A DNA stretch of 59,835 nt from an uncultured Vicinamibacteraceae bacterium (GTDB taxonomy: Bacteria > Acidobacteriota > Vicinamibacteria > Vicinamibacterales > UBA8438): the NCBI GenBank assembly GCA_964591245.1, contig CAZPZZ010000001.1, positions 1 through 59,835 on the forward strand. Reading direction: 5' to 3'. Made by a program: the position numbers and the translations under genes. The notes below the pieces were generated by a model, which did no database searches, was not told where the DNA came from, and saw only the letters and a list, made by a program, of their open reading frames with translations. Below, piece after piece: positions 13,626 through 49,451 of the stretch. Each line of letters opens with the position of its first letter. Position 1 is the stretch's first letter.

Positions 13626-14480
13626 CTATAATCCGCGCAGCCCCTCGGTCAGTTCAATGGACACACCCCACGGGTCAGTGAGAAACGCGTAGCCAATCCC
13701 AGACATGTGCTCGGTGTAGGGCACGTCGAACGTAAAGCCCCGCGCAACAAGTTCCCGACAATAGGCCTCCAGATCAGTGATCTCGAAGCCAATATGGTCA
13801 AGCATGCGACCGCGGGTAGGCGCTCCGCCCCGGTCAGGATTGAACGAGAAGTTGAAATTGACACCTGGCAGGTCAACAGCGTCATAGCGCCAACGCATAC
13901 CGGACGTCCCCCCGAACGTCGACGCGTACCATGCCTGCGCCTCTTTGACAGCATCCTCCACGAGATAGAGGTGCAGGTGATGCGACGCAATGGGCACCGG
14001 CAACGGCTGATTGTGCCGCTCGGCCACCGGGGGCAGCCGACCATCTTCAGTGGTGAAGGCCAGATTGGTGGCCGTATCGTCGAAAAGCTCGATGCGTTCG
14101 CCCTCCGGCGAGAAAACGTTCGTCACGCCGGAGGTGGCGGCCGCCAGATCGAAATCGAGCCCAGCATCAGCCACCGTTTCCAGCGACTGCACCCGGAACG
14201 CCACGTGGTTCAGAATTGAGCCCTCGGTTCCGCCCGCCGGGTCGCCCTCGGTCAAAAAGACCAGGACGCCCGGGAACGTCACGACCACCGATTCGCCGAA
14301 GCCGCTTACATCACCACCCAGCGACTCCCAGAACCGTTGATTCGCGTCAAGGTCTCGCACGTAATAGTGCAGATGCCCCATCGCGACACCCGCCTCATTC
14401 GGTGCAGCCAGCTGCGCTCCAACCGGAACCGACGACCCCGCACATACGAGCAGCGCGAGAAGCAGTGGGGAGCCCCTCAC
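13626..14480 (-). CDS. Exported two-domain VOC (glyoxalase/extradiol dioxygenase) family protein
   Basis: GHLH..NHVAF..IELF and HHLH..DHIGF..IELTE betaalphabetabetabeta repeats; signal peptide. The GTG start at 14480 overlaps the upstream TGA (GTGA). Confidence 0.75.
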   Translation of the reverse strand: MRGSPLLLALLVCAGSSVPVGAQLAAPNEAGVAMGHLHYYVRDLDANQRFWESLGGDVSGFGESVVVTFPGVLVFLTEGDPAGGTEGSILNHVAFRVQSLETVADAGLDFDLAAATSGVTNVFSPEGERIELFDDTATNLAFTTEDGRLPPVAERHNQPLPVPIASHHLHLYLVEDAVKEAQAWYASTFGGTSGMRWRYDAVDLPGVNFNFSFNPDRGGAPTRGRMLDHIGFEITDLEAYCRELVARGFTFDVPYTEHMSGIGYAFLTDPWGVSIELTEGLRGL

Positions 14481-15487
14481 TGGCCGGCCGCCTCTTCCAC
14501 ACGGGCCCCCCCAAGCATGACCGGCATCGAATAATTGCCTTCGTGACACGCGTACTCGAACATCGGTTCCGGATTCAGACGCAGCGGAACCGTCGCTGTC
14601 CAGGGGCTCGACCAGGTCTCGGGATCAGTGACCGTAAACTGATATTCCAGCGTGTCTGCATCGACCCTCGTAAATCGTTCGACAAGGCGCGCACTCGCGG
14701 TCGTTCCCCGCCACTTCCGTTTTGCATCAAAGTTCCGCGTCTCCACCACGAGAGTGTCGCCTTCCCAGTGGCCACGAGAATCTCCCGACCACTGTAGGAC
14801 ATCGGGATCCAACTGCGAACGCCCATCGAGTGGAATAATCCGAGCGGTATTCACCATCTCGGTCATCACCACGACCGTATCCGGAGTCTGGAACAGCTGC
14901 ATGTTGTTGTTGTACGCACTGGGCGTAAAGGGAGGCCCTGCATTGAACCCCAGAATGCATCGAACACCTGAGCTGAAATCCTCCCAGCTGTCGGCGGGGT
15001 GCTCCTCACGATAGACACGCCGTGCCTCCGCTCGCCGTTGGCCATCAGCCGTCAAATTCGGATACCGACCATTCGGAGGATAGGTGATCAATGAGGTCTG
15101 ACGCGTTTCCACCGTGTTGGTGCCGACATCTATCCAGAACTGGTTGTACGAACCGGGTGCCCCACGGTGCTCACCGACAGTAGTCCGCCGGTCGACGTTC
15201 TCGCCAACAGTCGTCCGTTGGGGAGGGGCATTCCACAGCGCCTGCTGACGCGCTTCCTCTGCCGCATCCAGTTCCGCCGCCTCCTCGGGAGTCAGAAACG
15301 CCTTATCCCCATAGTGCTCAGGACGTTGCATCGGCGTGATCGTGCGAAAATCCCACACACCCTGCAGGTCGGGTGCCCCCCACGTCGTACGCGGTGCTCC
15401 GTTGCCGTCGTCCTGCGCTTGCGTCGACACGGCTCCTAGCAGAGTCAACGCCGCGATGACACTCCCCCCGATCAGTCGGTTTGTCAT
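14477..15487 (-). CDS. Uncharacterised exported protein, 'EYACHEGNY' family, paralog 1
   Basis: PRTTWGAPDLQGVWDFRT, YNQFW, RCILGFN, WSGDSRGHWEGDTLVVET and FEYACHEGNY. ATG 15487 after AAGGAGAG. Confidence 0.8.
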   Translation of the reverse strand: MTNRLIGGSVIAALTLLGAVSTQAQDDGNGAPRTTWGAPDLQGVWDFRTITPMQRPEHYGDKAFLTPEEAAELDAAEEARQQALWNAPPQRTTVGENVDRRTTVGEHRGAPGSYNQFWIDVGTNTVETRQTSLITYPPNGRYPNLTADGQRRAEARRVYREEHPADSWEDFSSGVRCILGFNAGPPFTPSAYNNNMQLFQTPDTVVVMTEMVNTARIIPLDGRSQLDPDVLQWSGDSRGHWEGDTLVVETRNFDAKRKWRGTTASARLVERFTRVDADTLEYQFTVTDPETWSSPWTATVPLRLNPEPMFEYACHEGNYSMPVMLGGARVEEAAGQ

Positions 15488-15880
15488 ACCCTCTCTCCTT
15501 CTGTAAGACGCCATCCCGCCACGACGTCCGCGATCCGCCGTGTTGGCCAAGATGCACGCCGCAGAATCGCTCCAATCACCCTTCCCCTCTTAACCGAGGC
15601 ACCTGGGGGCACGGTAGACTAGAGCAGCCGCAGTGCTGCATCATCTATGACCGACGACGAGCGGAGGCGAGGGAAAGATTGTAGCGCACAATCCCGTCCG
15701 CCCCGCCGAACTCGGAACAATCGAGACGGCACCACCAGCGCCGTGATCCCAGGCGGCTGGCCAAGTTCAACCACCCAAGACAACGGCGTCTGCAACGACA
15801 TGCACCCAATAGGGGCCAGATTGAGGTATAAATGCAGCGTTTCGGACGTTGCATTCAAGAAGATCGCTGAGGATCCACTG

Positions 15881-17725
15881 ATGACCTCACCAACACCCAG
15901 GTACGTAACGATAGTGAGCGCGGCTCTCGTGCTTGCCCTTGGCGGACGCATGGCATTGGCCCAACCGCCACGCTGGTCACCAGGTCCGGCATCATGGGCC
16001 GGGGATCTGACTCCGATCACCGCCAGCGACTGGACGCCGGATCGAGCGGCACATCTGCTCGCGCGCGCGGGATTCGGCGGAACGCCGCAAGACATCCAGG
16101 CCCTCGCTCAGCTCTCTCCTGTAGACGCTGTGCGGTCGTTGGTCGACTATGGCAACATCGAAAATGGGCACCTTCCGCCATTCGAACATTCGGGATTATG
16201 GGATGAGGGGCTCTTGCACTTCCCGCCGAGCCGTCCAGCCGCGACTGAGCTTGCCGCCAGAAATGGCGAAAGCATGGGAGTCCGGATAAAGCCCGATCAC
16301 ATCAATCGGCACATGCAGCCGGTCTCGGACCGCTTCTTCTACTGGCTTCGGTCGACGTTGCTCGAAACCCGACGGGTCGGGTATTGGTGGGCGGAACGGA
16401 TGCTCGACACCCACCGGCCCCTCGAGGAAAAGATGGCCCTCTTCTGGCATGGCCACTTCGCCACGGCGGAAAACAAAGTGCGCGATTACCGGAAAATGCT
16501 CCTGCAAATCGAGACATTCCAGCGGCATGCCACCGGCAACTTCGGTGAATTACTGGTGGCCATTGCGCAGGACCCGGCGATGCTCTACTACCTGGACGCC
16601 GGAGTCAATGTGAAAGGGGCCGCCAATGAGAATTTTGCTCGTGAAGTCATGGAACTCTTCACGATGGGCGTTGGCCATTACACGGAACCAGACATCCGCG
16701 AGGCTGCGCGCGCCTTTACGGGCTGGAACTTCGAGAACCTCGACTTCGTCGTGCATCCCACGCTCCACGATAATGCCTCCAAGACTTTCTTGGGCCACAC
16801 CGGCAACTTCGACGGTGTCGACGTGTTGCAAATCATCCTGGAACAACCAATCACAGCCGAGTACATCGCGTCAAAAATTTACCGGTTCTTCGTACGGGAA
16901 GACCTATCGCCGGAACTGGCCGCCGAACTCGGTGATATCTTCCGCACTCACGACTACGAGATCCAACCGCTGCTCAGGACCATCTTTTCATCACGGGATT
17001 TCTACAGCGCAGCAAGCTACGGCGCTCACGTGAAAGGCCCAGTCGAGCATGTCATTACCTTGCTCAAACATCTCGACGCCAAAGACGTGCCTGGCGTGCC
17101 AGACTTTAATCGAACAACGACCGCACTCGGGCAACACTTATTGAATCCACCATCGGTGGCAGGGTGGGCTCAAGGACGGTCCTGGATCACCCCCGCGCTC
17201 ATCCTCGAGCGCGGCAACGTCGCCTTTGATTACCTCTTTCCTGACATCGTCAATTTCCGTGACCCCAACTTTCTCTCGCCCAGAGGGACCGGTCAAGTCG
17301 GTCAACGGTTACGGAATGGCTACGATTTCGGCAGTGCGATCGCGCTGAACGATCCCGCCAACATGTCCGCATTCGATCTCGTCGCGCTCGAGCGTGACGA
17401 ACTGTTCAACACCCGCATCTCCACCTATCGCGGGTGGGAACGTGCAGTCCGCAAGCTCATTCCGACACCGCGAGGCGGCGCGCGCATCGACTTCACCAAG
17501 ATGGTTCTCTCGTCAGGCTCAAAGACCACGAGCGAGGCGGTCGATTATCTGATCGGTCGGTTCCTGCGCGTACCGCTTGCGGCCTCCACCCGCGACGCCT
17601 TTGTGGCATTACTCGGGGACGAGTTGGGCACGTCGGACTTGACACGCGCGGAAACCTACATGGAGGATTCATTGCGCTTGGTCGCGCATATGATCTTGAG
17701 CACGCCGGAGTACCAGATCAATTAG
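15881..17725 (+). CDS. DUF1800 family protein, exported
   Basis: AAHLLARAGFG, LEEKMALFWHGHF, DPAMLYYLD, NENFAREVMELFTMG and PPSVAGW. Start moved to ATG 15881 (upstream GAGG), ahead of a signal peptide. Confidence 0.88.
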   Translation: MTSPTPRYVTIVSAALVLALGGRMALAQPPRWSPGPASWAGDLTPITASDWTPDRAAHLLARAGFGGTPQDIQALAQLSPVDAVRSLVDYGNIENGHLPPFEHSGLWDEGLLHFPPSRPAATELAARNGESMGVRIKPDHINRHMQPVSDRFFYWLRSTLLETRRVGYWWAERMLDTHRPLEEKMALFWHGHFATAENKVRDYRKMLLQIETFQRHATGNFGELLVAIAQDPAMLYYLDAGVNVKGAANENFAREVMELFTMGVGHYTEPDIREAARAFTGWNFENLDFVVHPTLHDNASKTFLGHTGNFDGVDVLQIILEQPITAEYIASKIYRFFVREDLSPELAAELGDIFRTHDYEIQPLLRTIFSSRDFYSAASYGAHVKGPVEHVITLLKHLDAKDVPGVPDFNRTTTALGQHLLNPPSVAGWAQGRSWITPALILERGNVAFDYLFPDIVNFRDPNFLSPRGTGQVGQRLRNGYDFGSAIALNDPANMSAFDLVALERDELFNTRISTYRGWERAVRKLIPTPRGGARIDFTKMVLSSGSKTTSEAVDYLIGRFLRVPLAASTRDAFVALLGDELGTSDLTRAETYMEDSLRLVAHMILSTPEYQIN

Positions 17726-17761
17726 GCTGTTCGGAGACCCGAAACAAGGTAGACAGAGCTC

Positions 17762-19012
17762 ATGACAAATCGAAGCAAACGGTTGTGTGAAGCCAGTGGC
17801 GTATCCCGGCGGGAAGCTCTAAAAATCGGCGCCAGAGGCCTCGCGCTTGGGGTAGCCGGAGCCGTCAGCCCACTCCCCCCGCTTTTTGGTGCGGCCTCGA
17901 AGGCTCTCGCCGCAACCGAAGGGAAGATCCTCGTCGTCTTCGAGTGGTTCGGTGGCTACGATGGCTTGAGTACGTTCGTTCCGTATAGCAACGACGCCCT
18001 GTATCGCCATCGACCGAACATTGGTGTCCGCGAGGCTGACGTGCTGAAAGTCGACGAACATTTTGGCTTTCAGAAGTCCATGCTTGGCATGCACCGGCTC
18101 TGGGAAGAGGGAAACCTTGCGGTCATTCACGGCGCGGGTTACGACCAGCCGTCATTTTCGCACTTCACGTCGGCGTCCTACTGGCATACAGGTGCACCGA
18201 ACAGTGGAGAGGAATTCGGATGGTACGGACGTACCGCGGATGTACTCGATCCCAAGGGAACGCCCAACTACCTCGTCAACATCTCGCCCACCCAAACGTT
18301 GGCTGTTCGAGCCCGCGAACACGTCCCCGTGGTGTTCGATGAGCCGTCAGCATTCACACGCAACGTGTTCCACCCTCAGCACCCGATCGTCGATCACCTG
18401 GGGGTGGGCCAGGAAGCCCAGACGGGCGTCCACAAATTCCTGCTGGACGTCAATCGAAGCGCGCGTGATGCATCTGCGCTAGTCAGCGAGGCGTGGAGCC
18501 AGTACAACCAGACACGTAATCCGGATCTTCGCCTCCTGGACCTCGACAAAGTCGTAGCCTTGATCGAGGCAGACTTCCCTGCACGGCTGTACTACGTTCG
18601 CCTGCAAAATAGCCTATTCGATACCCACGTAAATCAAGAGAGCCCCCACAACCGACAGGTGCAGTACTGCTCGGACGCCCTCTGGTCGTTCTTCGAAGAA
18701 ATGAAACGGCTTGGTAAAGAAGATGACGTGGCCGTCTTTGTGCACAGCGAGTTCGGGCGTCGCGTGCCAGAAAACACCAGCCTTGGCACGGATCACGGCA
18801 CCGCCAATGTCTCCTTCGTCATGGGTGGTGGAATCAACGGAGGACAATACAGCACGCCGCCGAGTCTCACGGACCTGGTCCACGGTGACAATCTCCAGCA
18901 CACCATCGATTTTCGGCGTGTTTACGCATCGTTGATCGAAGAATTCCTCGGACACCCGTCGGCTGAAGACGTGATCGGCGAGAAGCTGAAGACGCTCGGC
19001 CTATTTGCTTGA
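17762..19012 (+). CDS. DUF1501 family protein (Tat signal), partner of DUF1800
   Basis: SRREALK Tat motif, GGYDGL, SHF, FDTH, SEFGRR and GTDHG; 36 bp downstream of DUF1800. Confidence 0.88.
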   Translation: MTNRSKRLCEASGVSRREALKIGARGLALGVAGAVSPLPPLFGAASKALAATEGKILVVFEWFGGYDGLSTFVPYSNDALYRHRPNIGVREADVLKVDEHFGFQKSMLGMHRLWEEGNLAVIHGAGYDQPSFSHFTSASYWHTGAPNSGEEFGWYGRTADVLDPKGTPNYLVNISPTQTLAVRAREHVPVVFDEPSAFTRNVFHPQHPIVDHLGVGQEAQTGVHKFLLDVNRSARDASALVSEAWSQYNQTRNPDLRLLDLDKVVALIEADFPARLYYVRLQNSLFDTHVNQESPHNRQVQYCSDALWSFFEEMKRLGKEDDVAVFVHSEFGRRVPENTSLGTDHGTANVSFVMGGGINGGQYSTPPSLTDLVHGDNLQHTIDFRRVYASLIEEFLGHPSAEDVIGEKLKTLGLFA

Positions 19013-19050
19013 TCAGAGAACGCACTGATCCGCACTGAGCTCATAGGTAC

Positions 19051-19158: not shown

Positions 19159-21174
19159 ATGCGTATCTGTGTTGCGGTCGTGGCGTACGGAATACTGGCT
19201 AGTTCGGTCACCGCCCAGCCCGGCGCAGACTGGCCCGTGTACCTCGGGGACGCTGGTCGACGCCACTACTCAGCCCTCGATCAGATCACCCGGGACAACG
19301 TCAGCACACTCGAGCTTGCCTGGATCTACAACGCGGGTGAACTTCGGGGCAACCGTTCGACCATGTACACGAGTCCACTCGTCATCGAGGGTGTACTGTA
19401 TGGTCTCTCACCACGTCTTGCCGCGTTTGCGCTTGATGCGTCGACCGGCGCGGAGTTGTGGCGCTTCGATCCAGGAGTGCCGGGAGCCGCCCAACGGGGT
19501 CTGATGTGGTGGGAAGGTGAGGGTGGCCCTCGTCTGTTCTACACAGCAGGAAGCGTACTCCTCGCCATCGATCCCGAAGACGGCACTCCGATCACGACAT
19601 TTGGTGACAATGGCCAGCTTGAACTCACCCCGGACGGTCCAGGACGCTATATCGCCGTCACCGTGCCAGGGATTGTCTTCGAGAACACACTTATCCTCGG
19701 CTTCTCCACAACCGAAGGGTCTGACGCGTTCCCGGGGTCAATCCGCGCCTTCAGCGTCCATGACGGAACACTCGTGTGGCAGTTCGACACCATTCCCGCC
19801 CCCGGTACGCCGGGCGCCGAAACATGGACCGACGAGGGATCCCTGGCGCACGCCGGCGGAGCGAATGTCTGGAGCGGTATGACACTGGATACAGAGCGCG
19901 GCCTTCTCTTTGCGCCGACAGGCTCTGCCACACCAGACTTCTACGGTGCCGACCGTCTTGGCGACAACCTCTACGCTAACTGCCTGCTCGCGATCGACGC
20001 ACGCACCGGTGAGCTCCGGTGGCACTATCAGGTAGTCCGGCACGATCTCTGGGACCGTGACAATCCTTCACCCCCCACTCTCGTTCAACTGGAACGAGAC
20101 GGCAGGACCATCGATGCCGTCGCCTTGACGACCAAATCAGGCCATCTGTACGTCTTCGATCGGGAAACCGGTGAATCGATGTACCCGATTGTGGAAGTGC
20201 CCCAACTACCCAGCACACTGCCGGGAGAGGTGCCCGCCCCCAGTCAACCCTTCTCGGAGGTTGCATTCAGTCGACAGACCTTTGAAATTACGGAGCGGAA
20301 TGAGGCTGCACGACGCTTCGTAGAAGAACAGATCCAGGACTGGGATCTTCGAACAGGAGCGCCGCCTCGGGTTGGCACGGTGTTACTACAACCCTGGTAC
20401 GATGGGGGCGCCGAATGGGGAGGATCAGCATATGATCCAAACACCCATCAACTGATTCTCAACGCCAATGATGTACCAGGAGTACTGGAACTGACAGAAG
20501 TACCGGCCGGGTTCAGCGACTATGGTTTCTACGCTCAGCGTTGTGGCAGCTGTCACGGCTTAGACCTCGAAGGCACCGAAACTGCTCCACCTCTACTCGG
20601 AATACGCGACCGTTTAAATACCGAGGCCATTCTCGCTCTCCTGCGAGACGGTCGGGGACGGATGCCGGCCTTTGCCGACTTCGATGACGCCGAGCGGCAG
20701 GCCATCCTCCGCTACATCTCCCAGACCGAACCGGAGCGGGACGAACCGACAGACGAGGTCACGTACGTCCTGGGCGGCTATGTCTACCTTCGCGATCATG
20801 AAGATCTCCCAGGTAACACACCTCCCTGGGGCACATTGAACTCGATCGACCTCAACACCGGGGCTATCGACTGGGCCATCCCGTTTGGGAATTATCCGTC
20901 GCACCCGGACCTCGGTTATGGCGCCGTGAACTATGGGGGCCCCGTCGTCACCGCCTCAGGACTCATCTTCATCGCAGCGACTCCTGACAGGATGTTTCGC
21001 GCTTATGACACGCGAAACGGAGAATTGCTGTGGGAGACAGAACTGTCGGCAGGCGGGTTCTCGACTCCCGCAATCTACAATGTTCAGGGAAAACAATTTG
21101 TCGTGATTGCAGCGGGCGGTGGTCGAACGGGGCCACCCTCAGCCGCAGACTACTACGCCTTCAGTCTTCCGTAG
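19159..21174 (+). CDS. PQQ-dependent dehydrogenase (glucose/sugar-DH-like) with internal cytochrome c domain (quinohemoprotein)
   Basis: DWPVYLGD, TSPLV, GANVWSGM, HDLWDRD, GGAEWGG, an inserted CGSCHG...GRGRMPAF heme domain, PPWGTL and GGFSTP. Confidence 0.85.
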   Translation: MRICVAVVAYGILASSVTAQPGADWPVYLGDAGRRHYSALDQITRDNVSTLELAWIYNAGELRGNRSTMYTSPLVIEGVLYGLSPRLAAFALDASTGAELWRFDPGVPGAAQRGLMWWEGEGGPRLFYTAGSVLLAIDPEDGTPITTFGDNGQLELTPDGPGRYIAVTVPGIVFENTLILGFSTTEGSDAFPGSIRAFSVHDGTLVWQFDTIPAPGTPGAETWTDEGSLAHAGGANVWSGMTLDTERGLLFAPTGSATPDFYGADRLGDNLYANCLLAIDARTGELRWHYQVVRHDLWDRDNPSPPTLVQLERDGRTIDAVALTTKSGHLYVFDRETGESMYPIVEVPQLPSTLPGEVPAPSQPFSEVAFSRQTFEITERNEAARRFVEEQIQDWDLRTGAPPRVGTVLLQPWYDGGAEWGGSAYDPNTHQLILNANDVPGVLELTEVPAGFSDYGFYAQRCGSCHGLDLEGTETAPPLLGIRDRLNTEAILALLRDGRGRMPAFADFDDAERQAILRYISQTEPERDEPTDEVTYVLGGYVYLRDHEDLPGNTPPWGTLNSIDLNTGAIDWAIPFGNYPSHPDLGYGAVNYGGPVVTASGLIFIAATPDRMFRAYDTRNGELLWETELSAGGFSTPAIYNVQGKQFVVIAAGGGRTGPPSAADYYAFSLP

Positions 21175-21242: not shown

Positions 21243-22283
21243 ATGAACCTGCATCGCTCGCCCCGTCTCATACTGCTCCTCGTGCTGACTGTAGTCTCTA
21301 TCGTTGGGACCATGGTCGCCGCGGAACGGTCCGCGTCAACCATGACCTCTGCCGCCGAAGCGTTTCTCGAAAGCCTGACACCAGACCAACACGCACAGGC
21401 CACCTTCACCATGGCATCCGACGAGCGGGAAAAGTGGCACTTCATCCCCACCGAGATGTTTCCGCGTAACGGCTTGACGCTCGGTGAAATGAACGACGAG
21501 CAGCGCGCTCGGGCCCACGATCTACTCAGTGCCGGTCTCAGCCAGCGGGGATATCTGACGACGACCGCCGTCATGGATCTCGAAGCTGTCCTCCACGAAA
21601 TCGAGCAGGGCGGCCGCATGGAACGCAATCCGGAACTCTACTTTTTCTCCGTCTTCGGTACCCCCTCGAAAGAAGGAGCATGGGCCTGGCGCGTAGAGGG
21701 CCATCACCTCTCGCTTCACTTCACTATCGTGGACGGCAGTGCGGTTGGCACATCGCCGAACTTCTTCGGCTCAAATCCTGCCCAAGTACGCTCTGGGCCA
21801 AAAGCGGGACTCCGCGTACTACGAGAGCGAGAGGACTCCGCCCGCACACTCGTCAACGCGCTCGATTCGGCACAGCGCGCCGAAGCAGTGATCGACTCAG
21901 TCGCCCCCAGCGACATCCTGACCGGCGCCGAACTGAGCGTCGACCCACTCTCCCCCGTGGGTGTCAAGGCGTCCGATCTCTCCACAGAGCAGCGAGGGCT
22001 GCTGATGGGAATTCTTGAGAGCTACACGTCCATCATGCCCGACGACATCGCCAGCGAGCGGATGGCCAGTATCCGTGAGGCCGGAATCAACGATATCGGA
22101 TTTGCCTGGGCGGGACACACGGATCGCGGAGAACAGCACTACTATCGGGTTCAGGGACCGACATTCCTGATCGAGTATGACAACACGCAGGGCGATGGGA
22201 ACCACGTACACTCGACCTGGCGTGATTTCACCGGCGATTTCGGGCGAGATCTACTACGGGAACACCTGGCCACGTCGCACTAG
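21243..22283 (+). CDS. DUF3500 family exported protein
   Basis: WHFIP, RNGL, YFFSVFGTP, WRVEGHHLSLH, PNFFGSNP, YYRVQGPTFLIEYDN and NHVHSTWRD...DFG. Confidence 0.88.
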   Translation: MNLHRSPRLILLLVLTVVSIVGTMVAAERSASTMTSAAEAFLESLTPDQHAQATFTMASDEREKWHFIPTEMFPRNGLTLGEMNDEQRARAHDLLSAGLSQRGYLTTTAVMDLEAVLHEIEQGGRMERNPELYFFSVFGTPSKEGAWAWRVEGHHLSLHFTIVDGSAVGTSPNFFGSNPAQVRSGPKAGLRVLREREDSARTLVNALDSAQRAEAVIDSVAPSDILTGAELSVDPLSPVGVKASDLSTEQRGLLMGILESYTSIMPDDIASERMASIREAGINDIGFAWAGHTDRGEQHYYRVQGPTFLIEYDNTQGDGNHVHSTWRDFTGDFGRDLLREHLATSH

Positions 22284-23856: not shown

Positions 23857-23865
23857 ATCGCGCTC

Positions 23866-27037: not shown

Positions 27038-28672
27038 ATGATACGACTCGTTCTCGCCCTTGCCCTGGTCGCTTGGGCGGCTCCAGGACTCGCCCAAACA
27101 AGTAGTTCGCAAGCCAGCGCGTCACCAGTTCTTTCACCGGTGACCTGGGAACGTCTCCTCAACGCCGCTGACGAACCGCAGAACTGGCTGATGTACTCCG
27201 GCACGCTCGATAGCCAGCGCTACAGTGGTCTGGAACAGATCCACAATCGCAATGTCGGCGCACTCGAACTGAAGTGGGCGTATCAGATCCCACAACTGGA
27301 CCGCGCCGAAACCGTACCGCTCGTGGTGGACGGCGTGATGTTCATCACCGAGGCCCCCAGTAACGTGGTCGCCGTAGACGCGACCACCGGGCGCCAGTAC
27401 TGGCGCTATGACCACCCTCTCCCCGACGACCTTCGCATCTGCTGCGGCCGGAACAACCGTGGCGTGGCCATTCTCGGTGAGACGCTCTACATGAGCACCC
27501 TCGACGCCCACCTCGTCGCCATCGATGCGAGGAGCGGAAACCTGGTCTGGAATCGTGAAGTCGCCGACCACCGATCCGGTTACAGCAAGACAGCGGCTCC
27601 GCTGATCGTGAAGGGCGAGGTCGTCACCGGGATGGCTGGCGGAGAGTATGGGGTTCGCGGGTTCATCGACTCCTACAATGCCGAAACTGGCGACCTTGAG
27701 TGGCGAGCCAATACGATTCCCGGCCCGGACCATCCGGACAATCAGAGCTGGGCCGGCGACTCGTGGCGCACCGGCGGTGCCGCGAGCTGGATTACGGGAT
27801 CGTATGACCCGGATCTCGACCTCGTGTACTGGGGTACTGGAAATCCCGGTCCAGACTGGAATGGAGACGTCAGACTTGGCGACAACCTCTATTCCGATTC
27901 AGCACTGGCTCTCAATCACGAAACTGGTGGGCTTGAGTGGTACTTTCAGTTCACGCCCCATGACGTGCATGACTGGGACGCAATCCAGGTGCCCATCCTG
28001 GCAGACCTGACGTTCGACGGCGAAGACCGTAAGGTCATGATGTGGGCAAATCGCAACGCCTTCTTCTATACGCTGGACCGTGAAACGGGAGAATTCCTGC
28101 TGGGCACGCCCTTCGCCAAACAGACCTGGGCCGTCGACCTCGACTCCAATGGCCGACCAATTCGGGTGCCAGACACGGCGCCAACCCCGGAAGGCACCCT
28201 GGTCTCACCGCCCGTCGTCGGCGGTACCAACTGGTTCTCACCGGCGTACAGTCCGCGCACGGAGCTCTTCTACGTCCAGGCCTACGACGGCGAAGACATC
28301 TACTACAAACGGGACGAAGATTACGTGGAAGGCGACCAGTTCACAGGGGGAGGATTCCAGCGACCGCTTCCGGTGGAAAACTACGTCAGCGCCGTACGAG
28401 CCATTGAACCGCGAACGGGGGCGCTCCGGTGGGAGTATGAAATTCAGCCGCGGTCAACCGGGGGAATGCTCGCAACGGCAGGAGACCTTGTGTTCAGTGG
28501 GAGCGTGGATGGGTATTTCTTCGCCCTCGACGCCGTGAGCGGTCAAGAACTCTGGCACATGAATGTGGGGCGCATGGTGCACTCGGCACCAATTTCATTT
28601 GCGGTTGATGGTCGACAATACGTGACCATCGCAGCCGGAAATGTCGTATTCACATTCGGGTTACCGGAATAA
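27038..28672 (+). CDS. PQQ-dependent alcohol dehydrogenase (methanol/ethanol family), candidate lanthanide-type
   Basis: NWLMYSG, ETVPLVVDG, vicinal CC in CCGRNNRG, GGEYGVRG, GTGNPGP, HDVHDWD, NRNAF and GGTNW; signal peptide; upstream GGAGA. Confidence 0.9.
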   Translation: MIRLVLALALVAWAAPGLAQTSSSQASASPVLSPVTWERLLNAADEPQNWLMYSGTLDSQRYSGLEQIHNRNVGALELKWAYQIPQLDRAETVPLVVDGVMFITEAPSNVVAVDATTGRQYWRYDHPLPDDLRICCGRNNRGVAILGETLYMSTLDAHLVAIDARSGNLVWNREVADHRSGYSKTAAPLIVKGEVVTGMAGGEYGVRGFIDSYNAETGDLEWRANTIPGPDHPDNQSWAGDSWRTGGAASWITGSYDPDLDLVYWGTGNPGPDWNGDVRLGDNLYSDSALALNHETGGLEWYFQFTPHDVHDWDAIQVPILADLTFDGEDRKVMMWANRNAFFYTLDRETGEFLLGTPFAKQTWAVDLDSNGRPIRVPDTAPTPEGTLVSPPVVGGTNWFSPAYSPRTELFYVQAYDGEDIYYKRDEDYVEGDQFTGGGFQRPLPVENYVSAVRAIEPRTGALRWEYEIQPRSTGGMLATAGDLVFSGSVDGYFFALDAVSGQELWHMNVGRMVHSAPISFAVDGRQYVTIAAGNVVFTFGLPE

Positions 28673-29914: not shown

Positions 29915-31714
29915 CTAGTCTGGCAGTGCAAAAACGAACAAATTGTTCCCGTTACTCGGGCGTAACTCAGGCGTTAACTGGAGAAAACTCGGGGTCGTCG
30001 CGGCACCGCCGGTGCTCACCGCGAGATACTGACGGCCTTCGACCGAGAAACTGATCGGGAACCCGCTGACTGGGGAGCCAAGGTTGATCTCCCAGAGGAC
30101 ATCACCAGTATCCTGATCGAATGCTCGGAACCGGCCATTCGCATCTCCCCCGAAGACCAACCGTCCTCCAGTGGCTACGAGCGACAAGGTTGCAGCCCGC
30201 TGCTCGTGTAACCAGGTCGTCCGACCGGTCTCAGCCGAAATGGCGTATACGGCACCAAGTTGCTCGGTTCCTGGGGCTAACTCATGACGGACAGCCAACG
30301 CATAGATTCGATGAGAGGCCTCGGGCGAGGTGGTCGCCAACAATCGCTGACACATATTTCTCAACGGGAAGTACATGGTGTTCGTCAAGGGGCTATAGGC
30401 GCCAGCTTCCCAATCCTTCCCCCCGTGCATATTCGGACACGCCAGCACCTGCTGTCCTTCCGCGCTGAAAATGACCTCGGCGTTCTCGGTGACCGTCCCG
30501 GTCACGCCGTCAATGTCGCTCACGACGTTCTGCGCAATGGTAGGGGTGGCCCAGAGGAATTCACCCGTCTCGCGGTCAAGCGTATACACGAGACCGGTCT
30601 TGCCCGGAATCCCCGTCATGACCTTCCGCACCTCCCCTGGCTGGATTCGCGGGTTGATCCAGCTTACCGCCTCTGGATCCGGTGCTACCGCGGTGTCAAG
30701 GAGGAGACGCTCGAATGGATGATCAAGATCCCAATGATCGTTCAAGTGCTGATAATGCCACCGGATCTCACCGGTCTCCACATCGAGGGCCAGCGTTGAA
30801 TTGTGATACAGATGCGTATTCTCGATTCCCCCCAGCATGAACTTCGGAGCCGGTGAGGTCACTGACGTCCCCTGATAAATGAGTCGCAGTTCGGGGTCGT
30901 AACTCGCAGGCATCCAGGTTCCGACGTGCACCCGATCTTCATAAGGAACATCTCCCCATGTCTCATCCCCGGGTTCACCCGGCGCCGGAACGGTTCGACG
31001 TCGCCATAACTCCTGTCCAGTCAAAGCATCATGGGCCACGATGACACAGGACTCTGGCCCCCCGGCGGGTCGACAGCTCCGCCCCGAGATGACTTTCCCT
31101 GCCGCAATGATCGGTCCGGAACTGTGCCCCGCCGGTGTCACCTGGTAATCGAAGATCTGGGTCTCCCAGGCGATCTCACCCGTTGTCGCATCCAGACCGA
31201 AGACGTAATTGTCATCGCTCGTGTTGATGATGAACCGATCGAAGATGGCGATGTTCCGGTTGTTACGAGCATTACCACCCACGAAGTCATACACATCATC
31301 TGGCAGATCCCGACGATGCGCCCACTTCAAGTCGCCAGTCACGGCGTCTATGGCTTCGATCACGTCGCTGGCCTGCGGCATATAGAGGACACCGTCATAG
31401 GCCAGTGGCGTCCCTTCCTGACGGCCTGGCGCCAACGCCCGAGTCCACACGAGACGCAACTGGTCGACATTGTCCCGCGTGATCTGATCGAGCGGACTGT
31501 ACCCCCACCCGTCCAACGTCCGCCGCCACATCAACCAATCGCCCGGCGCCGGCTCCTCGAGCATGGCATCGGTCACAGGGGTGAAGGGAGTTCCAGTCTC
31601 CGTTTGCGCAACGGCCAGCGATGGCACGCACCAGATGACCGCAAGAGCGATACCGGATACCGACGCACACCGTGCCGCATGCCTGAAAATCGTACGCACC
31701 GTCAGCATGACCAT
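29915..31714 (-). CDS. PQQ-dependent dehydrogenase-like protein (alcohol/sugar DH family, no vicinal Cys-Cys)
   Basis: DWLMWRRT, EGTPLAYDG, NNRN, GTWMPASYD, NDHWDLDHPFE, GGKDW and GSPVSGFP. ATG 31714 after GAGG. Confidence 0.8.
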   Translation of the reverse strand: MVMLTVRTIFRHAARCASVSGIALAVIWCVPSLAVAQTETGTPFTPVTDAMLEEPAPGDWLMWRRTLDGWGYSPLDQITRDNVDQLRLVWTRALAPGRQEGTPLAYDGVLYMPQASDVIEAIDAVTGDLKWAHRRDLPDDVYDFVGGNARNNRNIAIFDRFIINTSDDNYVFGLDATTGEIAWETQIFDYQVTPAGHSSGPIIAAGKVISGRSCRPAGGPESCVIVAHDALTGQELWRRRTVPAPGEPGDETWGDVPYEDRVHVGTWMPASYDPELRLIYQGTSVTSPAPKFMLGGIENTHLYHNSTLALDVETGEIRWHYQHLNDHWDLDHPFERLLLDTAVAPDPEAVSWINPRIQPGEVRKVMTGIPGKTGLVYTLDRETGEFLWATPTIAQNVVSDIDGVTGTVTENAEVIFSAEGQQVLACPNMHGGKDWEAGAYSPLTNTMYFPLRNMCQRLLATTSPEASHRIYALAVRHELAPGTEQLGAVYAISAETGRTTWLHEQRAATLSLVATGGRLVFGGDANGRFRAFDQDTGDVLWEINLGSPVSGFPISFSVEGRQYLAVSTGGAATTPSFLQLTPELRPSNGNNLFVFALPD

Positions 31715-31758
31715 CCCAACCTCAGAGCGAGACGCGTAAATTCGCACGTCGCGCCGCC

Positions 31759-33671: not shown

Positions 33672-35672
33672 CTACTCTGTTCTCGGTAGCGCGAGCGCCA
33701 CATACTCACTGGGCATGTCTTCCCAACCGAGCGTGACGAGAATAAATTGCTGACCGTCGATCATGTAGGTCATAGGTGCAGCCGTCGTCCCGCCGGGCAA
33801 CGCCACCTCACCCACGACCGCGCCAGTCAATTTGTCGTACGCACGCAACGACTTCCCTCCGGCTCCTCCCCAAATCGGGTTGAGCACAACCACGCCAGTA
33901 TTCCCTCCCTCGCCGAGAATGACCAATGACCGCGTCACGAGCGGAGAAACTCGGCCCGGCTGCCCCAGATCGGGCAGATCTAAATGCTGCAGGGCTGGAT
34001 GGTCGACAGGCCCACGACCGTTCGGGACAGACCACAGAATCTCTCCAGCGTTCAAGTCGATCGCGACAAGCCGGCCGTATGGGGGTTTGAACAATGGTAG
34101 GTCCCGGGGGCCCTCGACGGCCGCCAAGGACCGCACCACGATCTCCATATCAGATCGGGGATGCTCAGACTGAACCAGTCCGATCACTGATTCGCTGTGC
34201 ACCGAGGGCACGTAGAGAATCCCCGTCTCAGGATCAACTGCCGCCCCGCCCCAGTCCGCACCGCCGACAACGCCTGGCATCTGGAGGGTGCCTTGCGTCC
34301 CCCCCGCATTCTCGCCGACCAAAGAAGGCGGCGTAAACAACGGTCCACTGACGTAGCGGTCGAAGATCACCAAAGCCTCGCGCCGAAGCTCCGGGGTGAA
34401 ATCGATCAGATCGTCGACGCCCGTACCCTGCTGATCGAATGCGGGTGGTTTCGTCGGAAACGGCTGGGTCGCAGCGTACCATTCCCCCGGAACGTTACCC
34501 TGAAGCACCTGACGCTCCTCAATCGGCCAGATCGGCTCACCGGTCGCCCGATCAAGGACGTAGGTAAAGGCTTGCTTACTCACAGCAGCCACCGCCTCAA
34601 TCCTGCGACCGTCGACCTCAATATCGATCAAATTCGGCGCCGCCGGAAAGTCGTAGTCCCAGATACCATGGTGCACGGCCTGGAAATGCCAGACCCGTTC
34701 GCCTGTGCGCGCGTCAAGACAGACGATTGCTTCCGCAAATAAATTGTCGCCGGGCCGATAACCACCGTAATAGTCGTTTGTAGGCGTCGACAACGGCACA
34801 TAGACGTAGCCCAATTCTTCATCTCCGCTCGCCCAAGCCCACATATTCGTGTTGCCGCTGTATTCCCATGAGGGCCGATCCTGATCGAGCGCAGTGAGCC
34901 ATGTTTCATTTCCCAGTTCCCCGTCCCGGGGAATCGTATGAAAGATCCACAACTGTTCGCCCGTGCGCACGTCGAAACCACGCACATCACCGGGCGGCAT
35001 CTCCTTCATCGCTGGCATCGTTGGATTCGTCACGTCGGAAATGGCCGACCCAATGATGATCACGTCGTTAACCACAATCGGAGGCGATCCCCAGCCGAAC
35101 GTCTCAACCGTACGGTCGTCATATCCGAGACGCAGGTCCACCTCACCCCCTTTGCCGAAACCTTCTTCGCGCACCCCCGTTTCCGCGTCCAGGGCAACCA
35201 GGTACGGCCCGACAACACCGACAACCCGCGCTTCCTCGCTCCGTGGATCCATCCAGTACGCGAGCCCGCGCGTTTGCCGAACACGCTGAAATGCCTCACC
35301 GTCACGTGGAGGCGGCGCATCGTGCCACAGGAGTTCCCCCGTCCTGGCATCGAGCGCAGCAACGGTGCCGAGCCCCGTACTGATGAAGAGCCGACCACCG
35401 ACCATCAGTGGCGTGTTCTGCGATGCCACCGACGCGCGCACCTCGCGGTCGCCCCGAACAACCTCTGGCAGTACAGACTGACGCCACACGATTTCGAGGT
35501 CGGAGAAATTTTCCGCATTAATCTGCTCAAGCGGCGAGTACTTTGTCCCTTCGACGTCCCGACCGTACGCGGGCCACTCGACCGTCTGCGCCGAAACGGC
35601 AGCCAGGCCTCCCATCATCAACACGCAGCTACATGCGAACACTTGAATCGACAACTTCCCGTTTGGGCTCAT
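33672..35672 (-). CDS. PQQ-dependent quinoprotein glucose-dehydrogenase-like enzyme, soluble exported form
   Basis: EWPAYGRD..GTKYSPL.QIN, NTPLMVGG, SPPIV, PPGDVRGFD, HHGIWDYD, GGADWGG, KPPYG and APMTY. Confidence 0.85.
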   Translation of the reverse strand: MSPNGKLSIQVFACSCVLMMGGLAAVSAQTVEWPAYGRDVEGTKYSPLEQINAENFSDLEIVWRQSVLPEVVRGDREVRASVASQNTPLMVGGRLFISTGLGTVAALDARTGELLWHDAPPPRDGEAFQRVRQTRGLAYWMDPRSEEARVVGVVGPYLVALDAETGVREEGFGKGGEVDLRLGYDDRTVETFGWGSPPIVVNDVIIIGSAISDVTNPTMPAMKEMPPGDVRGFDVRTGEQLWIFHTIPRDGELGNETWLTALDQDRPSWEYSGNTNMWAWASGDEELGYVYVPLSTPTNDYYGGYRPGDNLFAEAIVCLDARTGERVWHFQAVHHGIWDYDFPAAPNLIDIEVDGRRIEAVAAVSKQAFTYVLDRATGEPIWPIEERQVLQGNVPGEWYAATQPFPTKPPAFDQQGTGVDDLIDFTPELRREALVIFDRYVSGPLFTPPSLVGENAGGTQGTLQMPGVVGGADWGGAAVDPETGILYVPSVHSESVIGLVQSEHPRSDMEIVVRSLAAVEGPRDLPLFKPPYGRLVAIDLNAGEILWSVPNGRGPVDHPALQHLDLPDLGQPGRVSPLVTRSLVILGEGGNTGVVVLNPIWGGAGGKSLRAYDKLTGAVVGEVALPGGTTAAPMTYMIDGQQFILVTLGWEDMPSEYVALALPRTE

Positions 35673-36966: not shown

Positions 36967-37338
36967 CGTCACACGTCGACTCTAGCCGTGCTCTGGTCTC
37001 CTCGGCTTGCCCCACGACAAGTTCGTGGACGAATGGATAATGTCGCACTTGTAACCGACGCGTCTCCGCCTGGTGGGTCTGTGCCCTTCTCTGCGCGGGA
37101 AGACGGACTGAAGGTTCCAACGATTGTCTAGACGTCCAGTTCTTTCTTGTTCCGGGCCGCCGAGGAGGCAACGCCGGCCGAACGACTCGAACGTGCCGGT
37201 TCTCACCAGCGCAGAGGAGGTAACCGAATTCCCTCGCTGACCGCGTCTGCCCCCGAAACCGCGGCCCAGACCTTCCCCAGCGCCGCAGCGATCGCGAGTA
37301 TCATCTCCCCCGCATTCATCCCCAGGAGTCTGCCGAGT

Positions 37339-38700
37339 ATGCCCACCGGATCATCGTCTACCTCGAGAAGCTTTGGATTTGTCGCAGTCGCGGCATTGGT
37401 GCTCACAACACACCTAGACGCTCAAGAGTGGCCGCAGTGGCGCGGCGCCGAGCGCCGGGCTCATTGGCAAGAAACCGGTATCGTGCAGCGCTTCCCAGAA
37501 GAGGGGCTCTCCGTCACCTGGCGTGTACCCATCAGATCGGGATACGCCGGACCGGCGGTAGCCGGGGGTCGGGTCTTTGTGCTCGACTGGGAGCAAGACG
37601 CTACCTCCAGGACGTTCGACGGTACTGAACGGCTGATCGTGCTGGACGAAACCACGGGAACGGTGGCGTGGAGTTACGAATGGCAAACGTCGTACCGGAG
37701 CCTCATGAGCTCCTATGCCATCGGCCCTAGGGCGACGCCGACCGTCGACGAAGATCGCGTGTACGTCGTAGGAGCCACGGGCCGTCTTTTTTGCCTCGAC
37801 GTCGAGACCGGGACCTTGCAATGGGAGAGAGATTTTGTAGCAGACTACGGGCTCTCTCTCACGCCATGGGGTGTCGCCGGCGCACCGCTCGTCGACGGCG
37901 ACCATCTCATCGCGGTTGTCGGTGGCGAACCAGACGCCCTTGTTGTCGCCTTTGACAAGCACACGGGAAGAGAGCGCTGGCGAGCGCTTGAGGTCATAAG
38001 CGAAGCCGGATACGGCCAGCCGGTCATCTACGAGGCCGGAGGCGCCAGACAGCTCATCGTGTGGCATCCCACGGGCTTGGCATCGCTGGCCCCCGAAACA
38101 GGGACGCTCTATTGGGAACACGCATTTGACACAAGGGACGGCATCACGATCGCAACGCCAGTGCAGAGTGGGCCCTATCTCCTCGTGACCAGCCTCTACA
38201 ACGGGTCGCTCATGATGCGACTCAACAGCGATCGCCCTGCCGCCGAGCAACTTTGGACAGGATCGAGCCGCAGCTATGAAGCCGACCAGACAGACGGCCT
38301 ACACTCGATGACCACGACGCCCATCCTGGTTGGGGATCATTTCTACGGCGTCGGCGCGCACGGCGAGCTGCGGGGACTGGATGCACGGACTGGTGAACGA
38401 CTCTGGATGAGCGATCAAATGACCGCACAGGCAACGTACGCCACGGCCTTCTTCGTCCGCCATGAGGACCGATTTTTCGTGAATACCGATGATGGCAACC
38501 TTATCATCGCGCAGTTCACGCCAGGCGGGTACATCGAGCAAGACCGTGTGCCGCTCATTGCGCCGACCTCCAGACCTGCGCGTGGGCACGGCCCAGATCG
38601 TCTCGTGAATTGGGTGCACCCGGCCTACGCCAACGGTCACGTGGTCCAACGCAATGACAGGGAGATTCTACGTGCGTCACTCCGCGCGGTCGATTACTAG
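37339..38700 (+). CDS. PQQ-binding-like beta-propeller repeat protein, exported
   Basis: EWPQWRG, SGYAGPAV, GPRATPTVD, GAPLVDG and YGQP; ATG 37339 after AGGAG. Its stop shares CTAG (38697-38700) with the convergent gene. Confidence 0.8.
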   Translation: MPTGSSSTSRSFGFVAVAALVLTTHLDAQEWPQWRGAERRAHWQETGIVQRFPEEGLSVTWRVPIRSGYAGPAVAGGRVFVLDWEQDATSRTFDGTERLIVLDETTGTVAWSYEWQTSYRSLMSSYAIGPRATPTVDEDRVYVVGATGRLFCLDVETGTLQWERDFVADYGLSLTPWGVAGAPLVDGDHLIAVVGGEPDALVVAFDKHTGRERWRALEVISEAGYGQPVIYEAGGARQLIVWHPTGLASLAPETGTLYWEHAFDTRDGITIATPVQSGPYLLVTSLYNGSLMMRLNSDRPAAEQLWTGSSRSYEADQTDGLHSMTTTPILVGDHFYGVGAHGELRGLDARTGERLWMSDQMTAQATYATAFFVRHEDRFFVNTDDGNLIIAQFTPGGYIEQDRVPLIAPTSRPARGHGPDRLVNWVHPAYANGHVVQRNDREILRASLRAVDY

Positions 38701-48321: not shown

Positions 48322-48452
48322 CAAACCAACGAACATTTCCCGTCATCCTCTTACCAGCAACCTCGCCAAGCTGCGACGCGCCATCCCAACTCGTGGTACT
48401 GTCTGAGAGGGAATAGGAACACACCGAACAACGGCCTGATGAGGTAATAACC

Positions 48453-49451
48453 ATGATCACCCGACCACTAGCCCTGCTCGTCGCCGTAATAACCTACTCG
48501 CTGCTGCTCACCAACGCGGCACTCGCCCAAAGCGAATCGACGTTGAAGACTCCACACGGTCATCCAGACATCAGTGGCGTCTGGGACTTTCGCACCGTCA
48601 CTCCGTTAGAACGCCCAGAGGAATTCGCTGACCAGCCGTTCCTCTCCGCAGAAGAGGTCGCCACCTACGCCGCAGAGCGGGTACGGGCTAACAACGCCGA
48701 TCTCGATCGCGAGGCAAAAAAGCTGGTCACGACCGACCGCGGTCAGGTCAACGGAACCCGGGAAAGCCGAGATCTTGCCCTGGCCTACAACAATTTCTGG
48801 TGGGATCGCGGTACCGGAGTGGTCGAAACTCGCCGCACCTCGCTCGTGGTAGATCCACCGAACGGTCGACTGCCGGCCCTGACTGAGATGGCTGCCGCCC
48901 GACGGGATGAACGGACCCGCATCAACCAGCGCGCCACTGAAGGTCCTGAGGATCGCCCTCTCGGCGAGCGCTGCATCACCGGCTTCAACTCAGGCCCCCC
49001 GATGCTTCCGGCGGCCTACAACATGAATGTCCAGATCTTTCAAAACGCTGACTATGTCGTACTTCTGAACGAGATGGTCCACAACGCGCGGATCATTCCA
49101 CTCGACGGCAGTGGTCATGGCACCGTTCCACTGTGGACTGGCGTTTCACGCGGATACTGGGAAGGAGCCACGCTCGTCGTCGAAACAAAGAATTTCCTCC
49201 GCGAGACCAGCTTCCGAGACTCGAGCAAGAACCTCCACCTCGTAGAGCGTTTTCAGCGGACAAGCGACGACGGGCTGATGTACTCGTTCACCGTCAGTGA
49301 TCCCACTACCTGGACGCAGCCATGGTCGGTGGAGCTTCCCATGCAGCGGAGCGACCTTCCGATGTTCGAATACGCCTGCCACGAAGGCAACTACGGCATG
49401 GATGGCACCCTGACTGGTGCTCGGGCAATCGAACGAAACTCCGGCGAATAG
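48453..49451 (+). CDS. Uncharacterised exported protein, 'EYACHEGNY' family, paralog 4
   Basis: TPHGHPDISGVWDFRT, YNNFW, RCITGFNSGPP, NEMVHNARIIPLDG and FEYACHEGNY; upstream GAGGT. Confidence 0.85.
   Translation: MITRPLALLVAVITYSLLLTNAALAQSESTLKTPHGHPDISGVWDFRTVTPLERPEEFADQPFLSAEEVATYAAERVRANNADLDREAKKLVTTDRGQVNGTRESRDLALAYNNFWWDRGTGVVETRRTSLVVDPPNGRLPALTEMAAARRDERTRINQRATEGPEDRPLGERCITGFNSGPPMLPAAYNMNVQIFQNADYVVLLNEMVHNARIIPLDGSGHGTVPLWTGVSRGYWEGATLVVETKNFLRETSFRDSSKNLHLVERFQRTSDDGLMYSFTVSDPTTWTQPWSVELPMQRSDLPMFEYACHEGNYGMDGTLTGARAIERNSGE

Follow-up and report, generated by a model that had tools for sequence, protein, structure and literature searches.

A large, unnamed family of exported proteins in Vicinamibacterales and its place beside periplasmic oxidative enzymes

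What are the four related exported proteins, each carrying an EYACHEGNY-type motif, that are encoded at dispersed positions in a 59,835-bp stretch of DNA from an uncultured Vicinamibacteraceae bacterium (the whole stretch that was analysed, referred to as the window in the rest of the paper), and what might they do beside genes for periplasmic oxidative enzymes? A reading made from the sequence alone (the sequence-only reading) had taken them for paralogs of an uncharacterised family, possibly with a disulfide or metal site, and had proposed a profile-based count of homologs, a test of gene neighbourhoods and a structure prediction followed by a fold search. We found that the four proteins, referred to as copies 1 to 4 (Table 1), belong to a very large exported bacterial family that is named in no database and to which no function is assigned. 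Tentatively, and on the strength of structural models, we favour the possibility that these proteins are disulfide-stapled barrels resembling fatty-acid-binding proteins (FABPs), with a large lid, which would bind small molecules as accessories to periplasmic oxidative enzymes.

All four open reading frames (ORFs) were found at the coordinates and on the strands given by the sequence-only reading. Aligned end to end, their products are 42-53% identical and share 82 invariant columns, within which every motif listed by that reading falls, and a profile built from the four copies recovered them with E-values of 1e-160 to 1e-167, far past chance. The blocks of the long form of the family, P-D-L-x-G-x-W, R-C, W-x-G-D-x-L-V-V-E-T-x-N-F, V-E-R-F, D-P...P-W and E-[YF]-A-C-H-E-G-N, are all present in 4/4 copies. 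So are the signal peptides that had been claimed: each is of the Sec type, with a hydrophobic stretch followed by a small-x-small site, the one of copy 1 being predicted as MTNRLIGGSVIAALTLLGAVSTQA with cleavage before Q. Throughout the source genome a signal peptide was detected in 70 of the 73 family members that could be tested, twin-arginine motifs and lipoboxes being rare (lipobox in 3/73).

The description of the family as uncharacterised was borne out. Hmmscan of all four copies against Pfam-A and NCBIfam gave no match at E ≤ 1, and searches of the PDB with the four-sequence and 150-sequence family profiles, or with the partner protein DUF6152 (see below), gave nothing below E = 0.9. 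No paper in the searchable literature contained the family motif or DUF6152, and that literature held nothing relevant on expansions of pyrroloquinoline quinone (PQQ)-dependent dehydrogenases in Acidobacteriota. The source records of homologs, which for copy 3 reach 83% identity, are all labelled 'hypothetical protein'.

As an account of the extent of the family, four paralogs proved far too few. The source genome, of marine origin, is a 4.5-Mb assembly of 301 contigs, 94% complete, in which the window belongs to contig C1. The four-copy profile matched 106 stretches of this assembly, and hidden Markov model (HMM) searches of its six-frame ORFs returned 98 matches, 86 of them full length. A C-H-E-G-N-type motif occurs in 82 of the 98 ORFs, and eight are short forms. 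With ~2.4% of the genes, this is the second-largest paralog family of the genome, behind 107 PQQ-dependent dehydrogenases. A larger, 115-member family obtained by BLAST single-linkage clustering was rejected as an artefact, one gap-spanning ORF having bridged ~30 NHL-propeller genes; at C168:1901-4192, a run of N merges a family gene and an NHL-propeller gene into a false ORF of 763 amino acids (aa).

Nearly all genomes of the same taxonomic family are saturated with copies, as exemplified by G011 (3.9 Mb, 125 copies) and G015 (6.6 Mb, at least 148), and the family accounts for roughly 2-3.5% of all genes across a whole family of marine Acidobacteriota. The remaining families of the order have 0-16 copies, and phylum-wide the family occurs in only 14 of 151 genomes and 10 of 108 genera. 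An exhaustive profile search of 1.84 billion cluster representatives (50%-identity clusters) returned 26,973 representatives at E ≤ 1e-3, of which 14,854 also pass E ≤ 1e-10; these ~27,000 representatives in public data are yet without a name, a domain model, a structure or a paper. Named records come from marine, sponge, coral, sediment and soil metagenome-assembled genomes, and their lineages include Vicinamibacterales, Bryobacterales, Terriglobia and several lineages of Gammaproteobacteria. The long form was not matched in plasmids.

In each related genus, copies 1 and 2 have a single clear ortholog apiece, 71-82% identical (for copy 2, in 19 relatives at 71-79%), while their best paralogs within the genome reach at most 66%. 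A maximum-likelihood tree of 76 copies from the source genome has long terminal branches (median 0.41), the four window copies fall in four separate parts of it, and just two damaged copies were seen, one interrupted by a stop (C11) and one split over two frames (C118). Since orthologs are closer than paralogs, branches are long and damaged copies are few, we conclude that the expansion is older than the genera and has been kept by selection, in agreement with the old, maintained expansion that had been proposed. The accompanying statement that the copies are not tandem is true inside the window but does not extend to the rest of the source genome or to its relatives, where tandem pairs and arrays occur.

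Conserved positions and predicted fold

Residues are numbered after full-length copy 3. In an alignment of 150 diverse members with a mean column identity of 25%, nine columns are invariant: R59, R171, C172, E267, E308, C311 and three Gly/Pro positions. H312, E313, G314, N315, E205, R211, Y187, N188, Q195, W236 and D285 are conserved in at least 90% of members. Of the Cys pair, His and Glu that the sequence-only reading had singled out as invariant, the Cys pair was confirmed, but not His312, the conservation of which is limited to the long form. Similarly, the core E-[YF]-A-C-H-E-G-N of the supposedly invariant EYACHEGNY is conserved, but its last Tyr varies (Y/I/H/R/L and others); Y316 being variable, a His-Tyr cross-link (H-x3-Y, as in cytochrome oxidase) was ruled out. 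Over the N-terminal motif and the barrel, short forms (265-320 aa) are recognised by the profile; both Cys are retained in them, in the source genome as in sphingomonads, together with a core [ED]-[YF]-x-C-x-E, but H-E-G-N is missing. Most true members have exactly two Cys (71 ORFs, counted in the BLAST cluster that also holds ~30 unrelated NHL-propeller genes), as one disulfide in an exported protein would fit. In 75 long forms of the source genome, entropy and indels concentrate at residues 81-100, 141-170 and 251-260, the other segments being conserved. Judged from the sequences, a fixed scaffold and putative polar site combined with hypervariable loops is the lipocalin-like pattern of diversified recognition.

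Structure prediction produced a confident model and only weak matches of the FABP/calycin type. While a first AlphaFold model of copy 3, based on a 34-sequence alignment, had a predicted local confidence (pLDDT) of 77, the model computed with the 150 diverse sequences reached a pLDDT of 90.4 and a predicted template-modelling score (pTM) of 0.89. From the N-terminus, it consists of a short strand with G-V-W, a stretch of ~140 residues made up of helices and loops, a set of eight or nine antiparallel strands, the EYACHEGNY loop and a long helix at the C-terminus. With both models, Foldseek found FABP-type barrels as the sole consistent matches in the PDB (tardigrade SAHS 5xn9, UnaG 4i3d, CRBP1 8gdm, CRABP2 and iFABP 3akn), with E ~1.5e-3, a probability of ~1.0, template-modelling (TM) scores of 0.47-0.55 by target and 0.22-0.26 by query, and ~120 aligned columns. 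The N-terminal ~160 residues of the model had no PDB fold match.

These members of the calycin superfamily are therefore the best structural matches over ~120 barrel residues in two independent models. Like the family, they have a first strand with an N-terminal G-x-W, the family insertion sits where FABPs have their helix-turn-helix portal, and SAHS proteins are also secreted. In contrast, PF00061 was not matched at E ≤ 1, aligned identity is 9-15% over a third of the protein, the predicted lid has ~140 residues versus ~25, and the invariant Cys pair, E-Y-A-C-H-E-G-N and the C-terminal helix are without counterpart in FABPs; the family is moreover bacterial, periplasmic and present in 100-copy expansions. 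The family, as modelled, shares with bacterial lipocalins and other exported calycins (Blc, YceI-like proteins and nitrophorin-type heme barrels) an exported β-barrel whose scaffold is conserved while the loops at one end vary. Nitrophorins are among the weak fold matches (target TM 0.27-0.29, root-mean-square deviation above 13 Å), but the rarity of lipoboxes and the absence of any lipocalin Pfam match distinguish the family from lipocalins. The model thus suggests a calycin/FABP-like fold class with a very large lid insertion, without establishing membership of a family within it. Hence, the fold class is probably already known, while no member has been described before and neither a domain model nor a structure exists.

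Gene partners

Neighbours were evaluated by comparing the HMM-defined family set with 1000 random gene sets in the source genome. The sequence-only reading had placed three copies beside redox or metalloenzyme genes, and we found the same: copy 1 adjoins a VOC/glyoxalase-superfamily gene, copy 2 lies between two PQQ dehydrogenase genes, and copy 3 is flanked by a PQQ dehydrogenase gene and a PQQ_2-type propeller gene (Table 1). Genome-wide, PQQ dehydrogenases are enriched ~2.3-fold near family genes, and VOC and DUF6152 clusters are enriched as well.

The TGA stop of copy 1 overlaps the GTG start of the VOC gene (GTGA; junction sequence CAGTGAGG), an arrangement suggesting that the two are translationally coupled. 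Read from that GTG, the VOC protein has a normal signal peptide, MRGSPLLLALLVCAGSSVPVGA, cleaved before Q. Of eight ortholog loci in other genera, five retain the pair as abutting genes of one strand, with VOC proteins 67-73% identical; in two more of these eight loci, the copy 1 ortholog adjoins an ortholog (68-75% identity) of the PQQ dehydrogenase that lies upstream of copy 2. Furthermore, all four genes of the VOC cluster lie within two genes of a family gene (0/1000 permutations reach this), and three fusions behind a single signal peptide join a two-domain VOC protein to the family domain (C72, C100 and C149). Overlap, conserved synteny and fusions, three mutually independent kinds of evidence, therefore mark the VOC link as specific.

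A second association involves DUF6152, a small exported β-rich protein whose mature chain starts with His-His after an A-x-A site in every sequence and in which an N-P-H motif is invariant. DUF6152 occurs with at least two family genes in 12 of 80 foreign loci, where short form, long form and DUF6152 recur in this order, encoded on a single strand in frames that abut. Bryobacterales, subdivision 2 and Vicinamibacterales have this trio, as does a gammaproteobacterium, in which two such trios stand in tandem. In the source genome, 8/8 short forms adjoin a DUF6152 gene and 9/10 DUF6152 genes adjoin a short form (DUF6152 at C100:11740-12180, C49:3508-3945, C179:7027-7302, C217:4808-5080 and six more positions). 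Five of these modules include a long form, trio sites being for example C49, C100, C179 and C217. The neighbour test found 5 of the 7 genes of the DUF6152 cluster adjacent to a family gene (0/1000 permutations reach this). DUF6152 counts follow those of the family, with none where it is absent, 1 at 3 copies and 8-16 where it is expanded. Neither a short form nor DUF6152 was found beside any of the four window copies, all of which are solo long forms.

Short form and DUF6152 are also present in the cultured sphingomonads Novosphingobium humi and Croceibacterium atlanticum. The N. humi pair adjoins a TetR gene, two DUF6644 genes and a gene for a 168-aa protein ending in CVACH (L145:3625-4131). 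On the C. atlanticum plasmid NZ_CP011453.2 (36365-40564; L146), a TonB-dependent receptor gene is immediately preceded by two DUF6152 genes and a short form, and genes for a MarR regulator and two G8-domain proteins flank the group. It is a serious possibility that the trio constitutes a periplasmic system not described before. From its sequence, the N-terminus of DUF6152 is a candidate histidine-brace metal site: as in CopC-type proteins with an N-terminal histidine ligand, the protein is small, exported and β-rich, starts with His-His and has a second invariant His in NPH. Unlike CopC-type proteins, DUF6152 matches no solved protein by sequence. Its metal site is a candidate only, and no gene for it lies in the window.

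As for PQQ dehydrogenases, 11 were found within one gene of a family gene versus 4.5 expected (10/1000 permutations reach this) and 19 within two genes versus 8.4 expected (0/1000 permutations reach this). Among 80 foreign loci, 22 have a PQQ dehydrogenase gene no more than 4 kb away. In 12 graded genomes the copy numbers of the two families correlate (Spearman 0.89) without tracking genome size, and two of the genomes lack both families altogether. Tannase, ankyrin and NHL-propeller genes are likewise enriched near family genes in the source genome. Conserved synteny between copy 2 and its PQQ dehydrogenase was rejected by the ortholog loci, and a clade-specific partnership was rejected by the scatter of enzyme-adjacent copies over the tree, where only VOC-fused copies and short forms form clades. 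The PQQ link is thus a statistical one, made of enrichment and copy-number co-variation, and not a conserved gene pair. Accessory proteins of known quinoproteins (MxaJ/XoxJ and the cytochromes cL/XoxG/ExaB) are likewise periplasmic, encoded beside PQQ dehydrogenase genes and present in numbers that follow them, but they have no homology to the family, whose own pairing is loose, with individual pairs not conserved, and which has no heme site. MxaJ and XoxJ have periplasmic-binding-protein folds, and XoxG and ExaB are class I cytochromes c. The source genome and G011 have pqqC; the complete relatives G002, G005 and G015, with more than 50 PQQ dehydrogenases, gave no pqqC match and may rely on external PQQ.

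A heme site proper is missing from the family. None of the 98 ORFs of the source genome contains CxxCH, the conserved segment E-Y-A-C-H having one Cys, and it is a separate, fused cytochrome domain that rare relatives carry. Other fusions of the family domain involve an NHL/SGL propeller, an α/α toroid and cytochromes c. In the database protein P0156, a class II-like cytochrome c domain ending in CVTCHADYR precedes a long form, and at L040:4710-6218 a class I cytochrome c domain (PF13442) precedes a short form; such cytochrome fusions are rare (2 of 270 proteins, 1 of 80 loci). A relative encodes a real fusion of a signal peptide, an NHL/SGL propeller and the family domain (L117:2399-4483). 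Long frames (500-1,590 aa) near family matches in relatives were also considered as fusions; nine of the ten tested proved to be high-GC read-through with no outside Pfam domain.

Readings of the family's function

According to the reading that we favour, the protein would be a β-barrel of the FABP/calycin type, in which the first strand bears the N-terminal P-D-L-x-G-x-W, a lid of ~140 residues of helices and loops is inserted ahead of the remaining strands, and a C-terminal segment consists of E-[YF]-A-C-H-E-G-N and a following helix. C172, after the lid, and C311, in the motif, would be joined by a disulfide and so fasten the C-terminal motif to the lid. A small molecule (substrate, product or cofactor-like) might then be bound at a fixed polar site comprising R59, R171, E267, E308, H312, E313 and N315, with the three hypervariable loops setting the specificity of each paralog, and the module would pass the bound molecule to or from periplasmic oxidative enzymes. 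The partner of copy 1 would be the co-translated exported VOC metalloenzyme, and candidate partners of copies 2 and 3 are the adjoining PQQ dehydrogenases. The ancestral setting would be the three-gene module of short form, long form and DUF6152, the long form having been amplified in this Vicinamibacterales family to ~80-150 dispersed copies in parallel to the PQQ dehydrogenases. Because its catalytic fusion partners are varied, as is typical of accessory modules, and its variation is centred on loops, an accessory binding role is favoured; the fold evidence, taken with the distribution of variation, makes binding slightly more likely than an enzyme.

Several observations weigh against this reading. 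The FABP-type match is weak (E ~1e-3, query TM 0.24) and spans a third of the protein, and the most conserved motif is the lowest-confidence segment of the model (pLDDT about 66), which hints at a bound cofactor, metal or modification invisible to the model. Binding, disulfide, cavity and the placement of the polar residues are all putative features of a model, and the invariant R59, R171, E267 and E308, with H312, E313 and N315, appear at least as typical of a catalytic or cofactor site. Copy 4 has no enzyme neighbour, the gene downstream coding for a Suv3-like helicase, and 49 of the 76 copies in the tree, copy 4 among them, have no recurrent enzyme family immediately adjacent. PQQ-adjacent and VOC-adjacent copies alike are scattered in the tree, and the orthologs of copy 2 sit in tandem arrays of family genes instead of beside a PQQ dehydrogenase. 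Part of the PQQ association could stem from shared islands of periplasmic genes and from lineage history. An extreme version of this argument, in which the neighbourhood signal is meaningless and the family is a structural, protective or inhibitor-type envelope protein that gathers in flexible islands with other amplified periplasmic genes, agrees with the enrichment of other amplified families of exported proteins (ankyrin-repeat proteins, NHL propellers and PQQ_2 propellers), with the majority of copies lacking a recurrent neighbour and with the unconserved neighbourhood of copy 2, in an assembly that is fragmented and crudely gene-called. Yet the VOC link rests on an overlap, on synteny in five genera and on fusions, and the trio with DUF6152 is kept across phyla; co-residence in islands therefore does not explain these associations, and we consider it very improbable as a general account.

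Could the family itself be a periplasmic enzyme with small organic molecules as substrates, such as a hydrolase, lyase, isomerase or oxidoreductase of the metal-dependent or acid-base type? Its active site would be drawn from E267, E308, R59 and R171, completed in the long form by H312, E313 and N315, its expansion would follow the range of substrates, in the manner of the PQQ dehydrogenases, and its neighbours would be pathway partners. Nine invariant columns, with four charged residues among them, are what such a site would leave in 150 sequences of so low a mean identity, and both faces of several barrel strands are conserved (W.GDTLVVET.NF, VERF.R and RIIPL). Fusion or operon linkage to VOC and NHL-propeller proteins is also typical of successive enzymes of a pathway, and calycin-type barrels can be enzymes, NanoLuc being among the fold matches. 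However, the Pfam, NCBIfam and PDB searches revealed no similarity to a known enzyme family, the short forms keep the scaffold without H-E-G-N, making that part of the putative site dispensable in the superfamily, and variation resides in length-variable loops and not at pocket-like strand positions. We thus regard an enzyme as somewhat unlikely.

Less probable still is a redox or electron-transfer component in which C-H-E-G-N would be the site of a cofactor (heme, metal or quinone-like), E-Y-A-C-H being aligned with the CXXCH heme site with Glu replacing the first Cys. Such a protein would take electrons from heme-less PQQ dehydrogenases or pass them onward to cytochromes c, with DUF6152 as a metal-binding partner. 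The 107 PQQ dehydrogenases of the source genome include 90 without CxxCH, and 11 have a CxxCH-containing gene at ±1, leaving most without an obvious acceptor; family genes and dehydrogenases are near parity (~98 versus 107) and co-vary across genomes. Two architectures of cytochrome c fusion, the CVACH protein adjoining the N. humi module, the low model confidence at the invariant motif and the His-His N-terminus and NPH motif of DUF6152 all agree with this idea. Nevertheless, a preference for heme-less dehydrogenases was rejected (14/90 versus 1/17, p = 0.46), CxxCH is absent from all copies of the source genome, the second invariant Cys is more simply part of a disulfide, His312 is absent from short forms, the variable Y316 excludes a His-Tyr cross-link, and the cytochrome fusions are rare. 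To our knowledge, attachment of heme through a single Cys is unusual in bacteria, which also counts against a heme-holding role; overall, this explanation is doubtful.

In a broader variant, which we consider improbable, a periplasmic redox or relay system, widespread but not yet recognised, would have long form, short form and DUF6152 as its soluble components; in sphingomonads it would further comprise DUF6644 membrane proteins, a class II cytochrome c and, in some cases, a TonB-dependent receptor. The invariant C-H-E-G-N/Glu/Arg site of the barrel would accommodate a metal or a redox-active small molecule, and in marine Vicinamibacterales the long form would have been amplified ~100-fold to provide dedicated carriers or acceptors for heme-less PQQ dehydrogenases, amplified to the same degree, and for other periplasmic oxidative enzymes.

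Whichever reading holds, the family sits amid an extremely amplified periplasmic oxidative machinery (more than 100 PQQ dehydrogenases, exported VOC enzymes, NHL propellers and tannases) that presumably attacks diverse dissolved or host-derived organic matter. The ligand or activity of the barrel, once known, would explain a major part of these genomes and could reveal how soluble quinoproteins obtain their substrates or shed their electrons. Copy 1 and its VOC partner constitute a defined two-protein target, and short form and DUF6152 are available in cultured Novosphingobium and Croceibacterium.

Other features of the window

Table 1. Family genes of the window and the genes around them (ORF, open reading frame; positions counted from the first nucleotide of the window)
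Feature	Position	Strand	Evidence or remark
Copy 1, long-form family gene, 336 aa	14477..15487	-	ORF, four-way alignment, profile E=6e-167
EYACHEGNY of copy 1	14531-14557	-	coding positions
Copy 2, long-form family gene, 343 aa	28736..29767	-	ORF, alignment, profile; furthest diverged of the four
Copy 3, long-form family gene, 338 aa	35950..36966	+	ORF, alignment, profile; protein used for modelling, with C172 and C311 as its invariant Cys pair
EYACHEGNY of copy 3	36871-36897	+	coding positions
Copy 4, long-form family gene, 332 aa	48453..49451	+	ORF, alignment, profile
Exported two-domain VOC/glyoxalase-superfamily gene	13626..14480	-	directly downstream of copy 1; PF00903 E=1.6e-12
PQQ-dependent dehydrogenase without heme domain	29915..31747	-	same strand, 147 bp upstream of copy 2; PF01011 E=1.2e-60
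PQQ-dependent dehydrogenase	27038..28672	+	convergent with copy 2; PF01011 E=1.3e-83
PQQ-dependent dehydrogenase	33672..35672	-	divergent from copy 3; PF01011 E=2.2e-181
PQQ_2/BamB-like beta-propeller gene	37147..38700	+	downstream of copy 3; PF13360 E=3.7e-32
705-aa protein with N-terminal membrane helices	46204-48321	+	directly upstream of copy 4; no Pfam match
Quinohemoprotein PQQ dehydrogenase	19159-21174		between planctomycete-type gene pairs
Planctomycete-type periplasmic pair, DUF1800 and DUF1501	15647-19012		
DUF3500 gene	21243-22283		between the same planctomycete-type pairs
Planctomycete-type pair, 1112-aa PSCyt1/PSCyt2/PSD1 protein and DUF1501	22432-27204		
Apparent TRAP transporter operon	10495-13471	+	convergent with the VOC-copy 1 pair

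Within the apparent TRAP transporter operon, the gene at 12170-13471 was scanned and codes for DctM (PF06808); those at 10495-11628 and 11625-12173 we take, from position and size, to code for DctP and DctQ. Other large exported families of the source genome comprise 48 heme-c DUF1592-like proteins, 45 DUF1552-like proteins, 42 ankyrin-repeat proteins with a signal peptide, 32 PQQ_2 propellers, 31 DUF5916 proteins, 30 NHL-repeat propellers and 19 PF04199 cyclase-like proteins.

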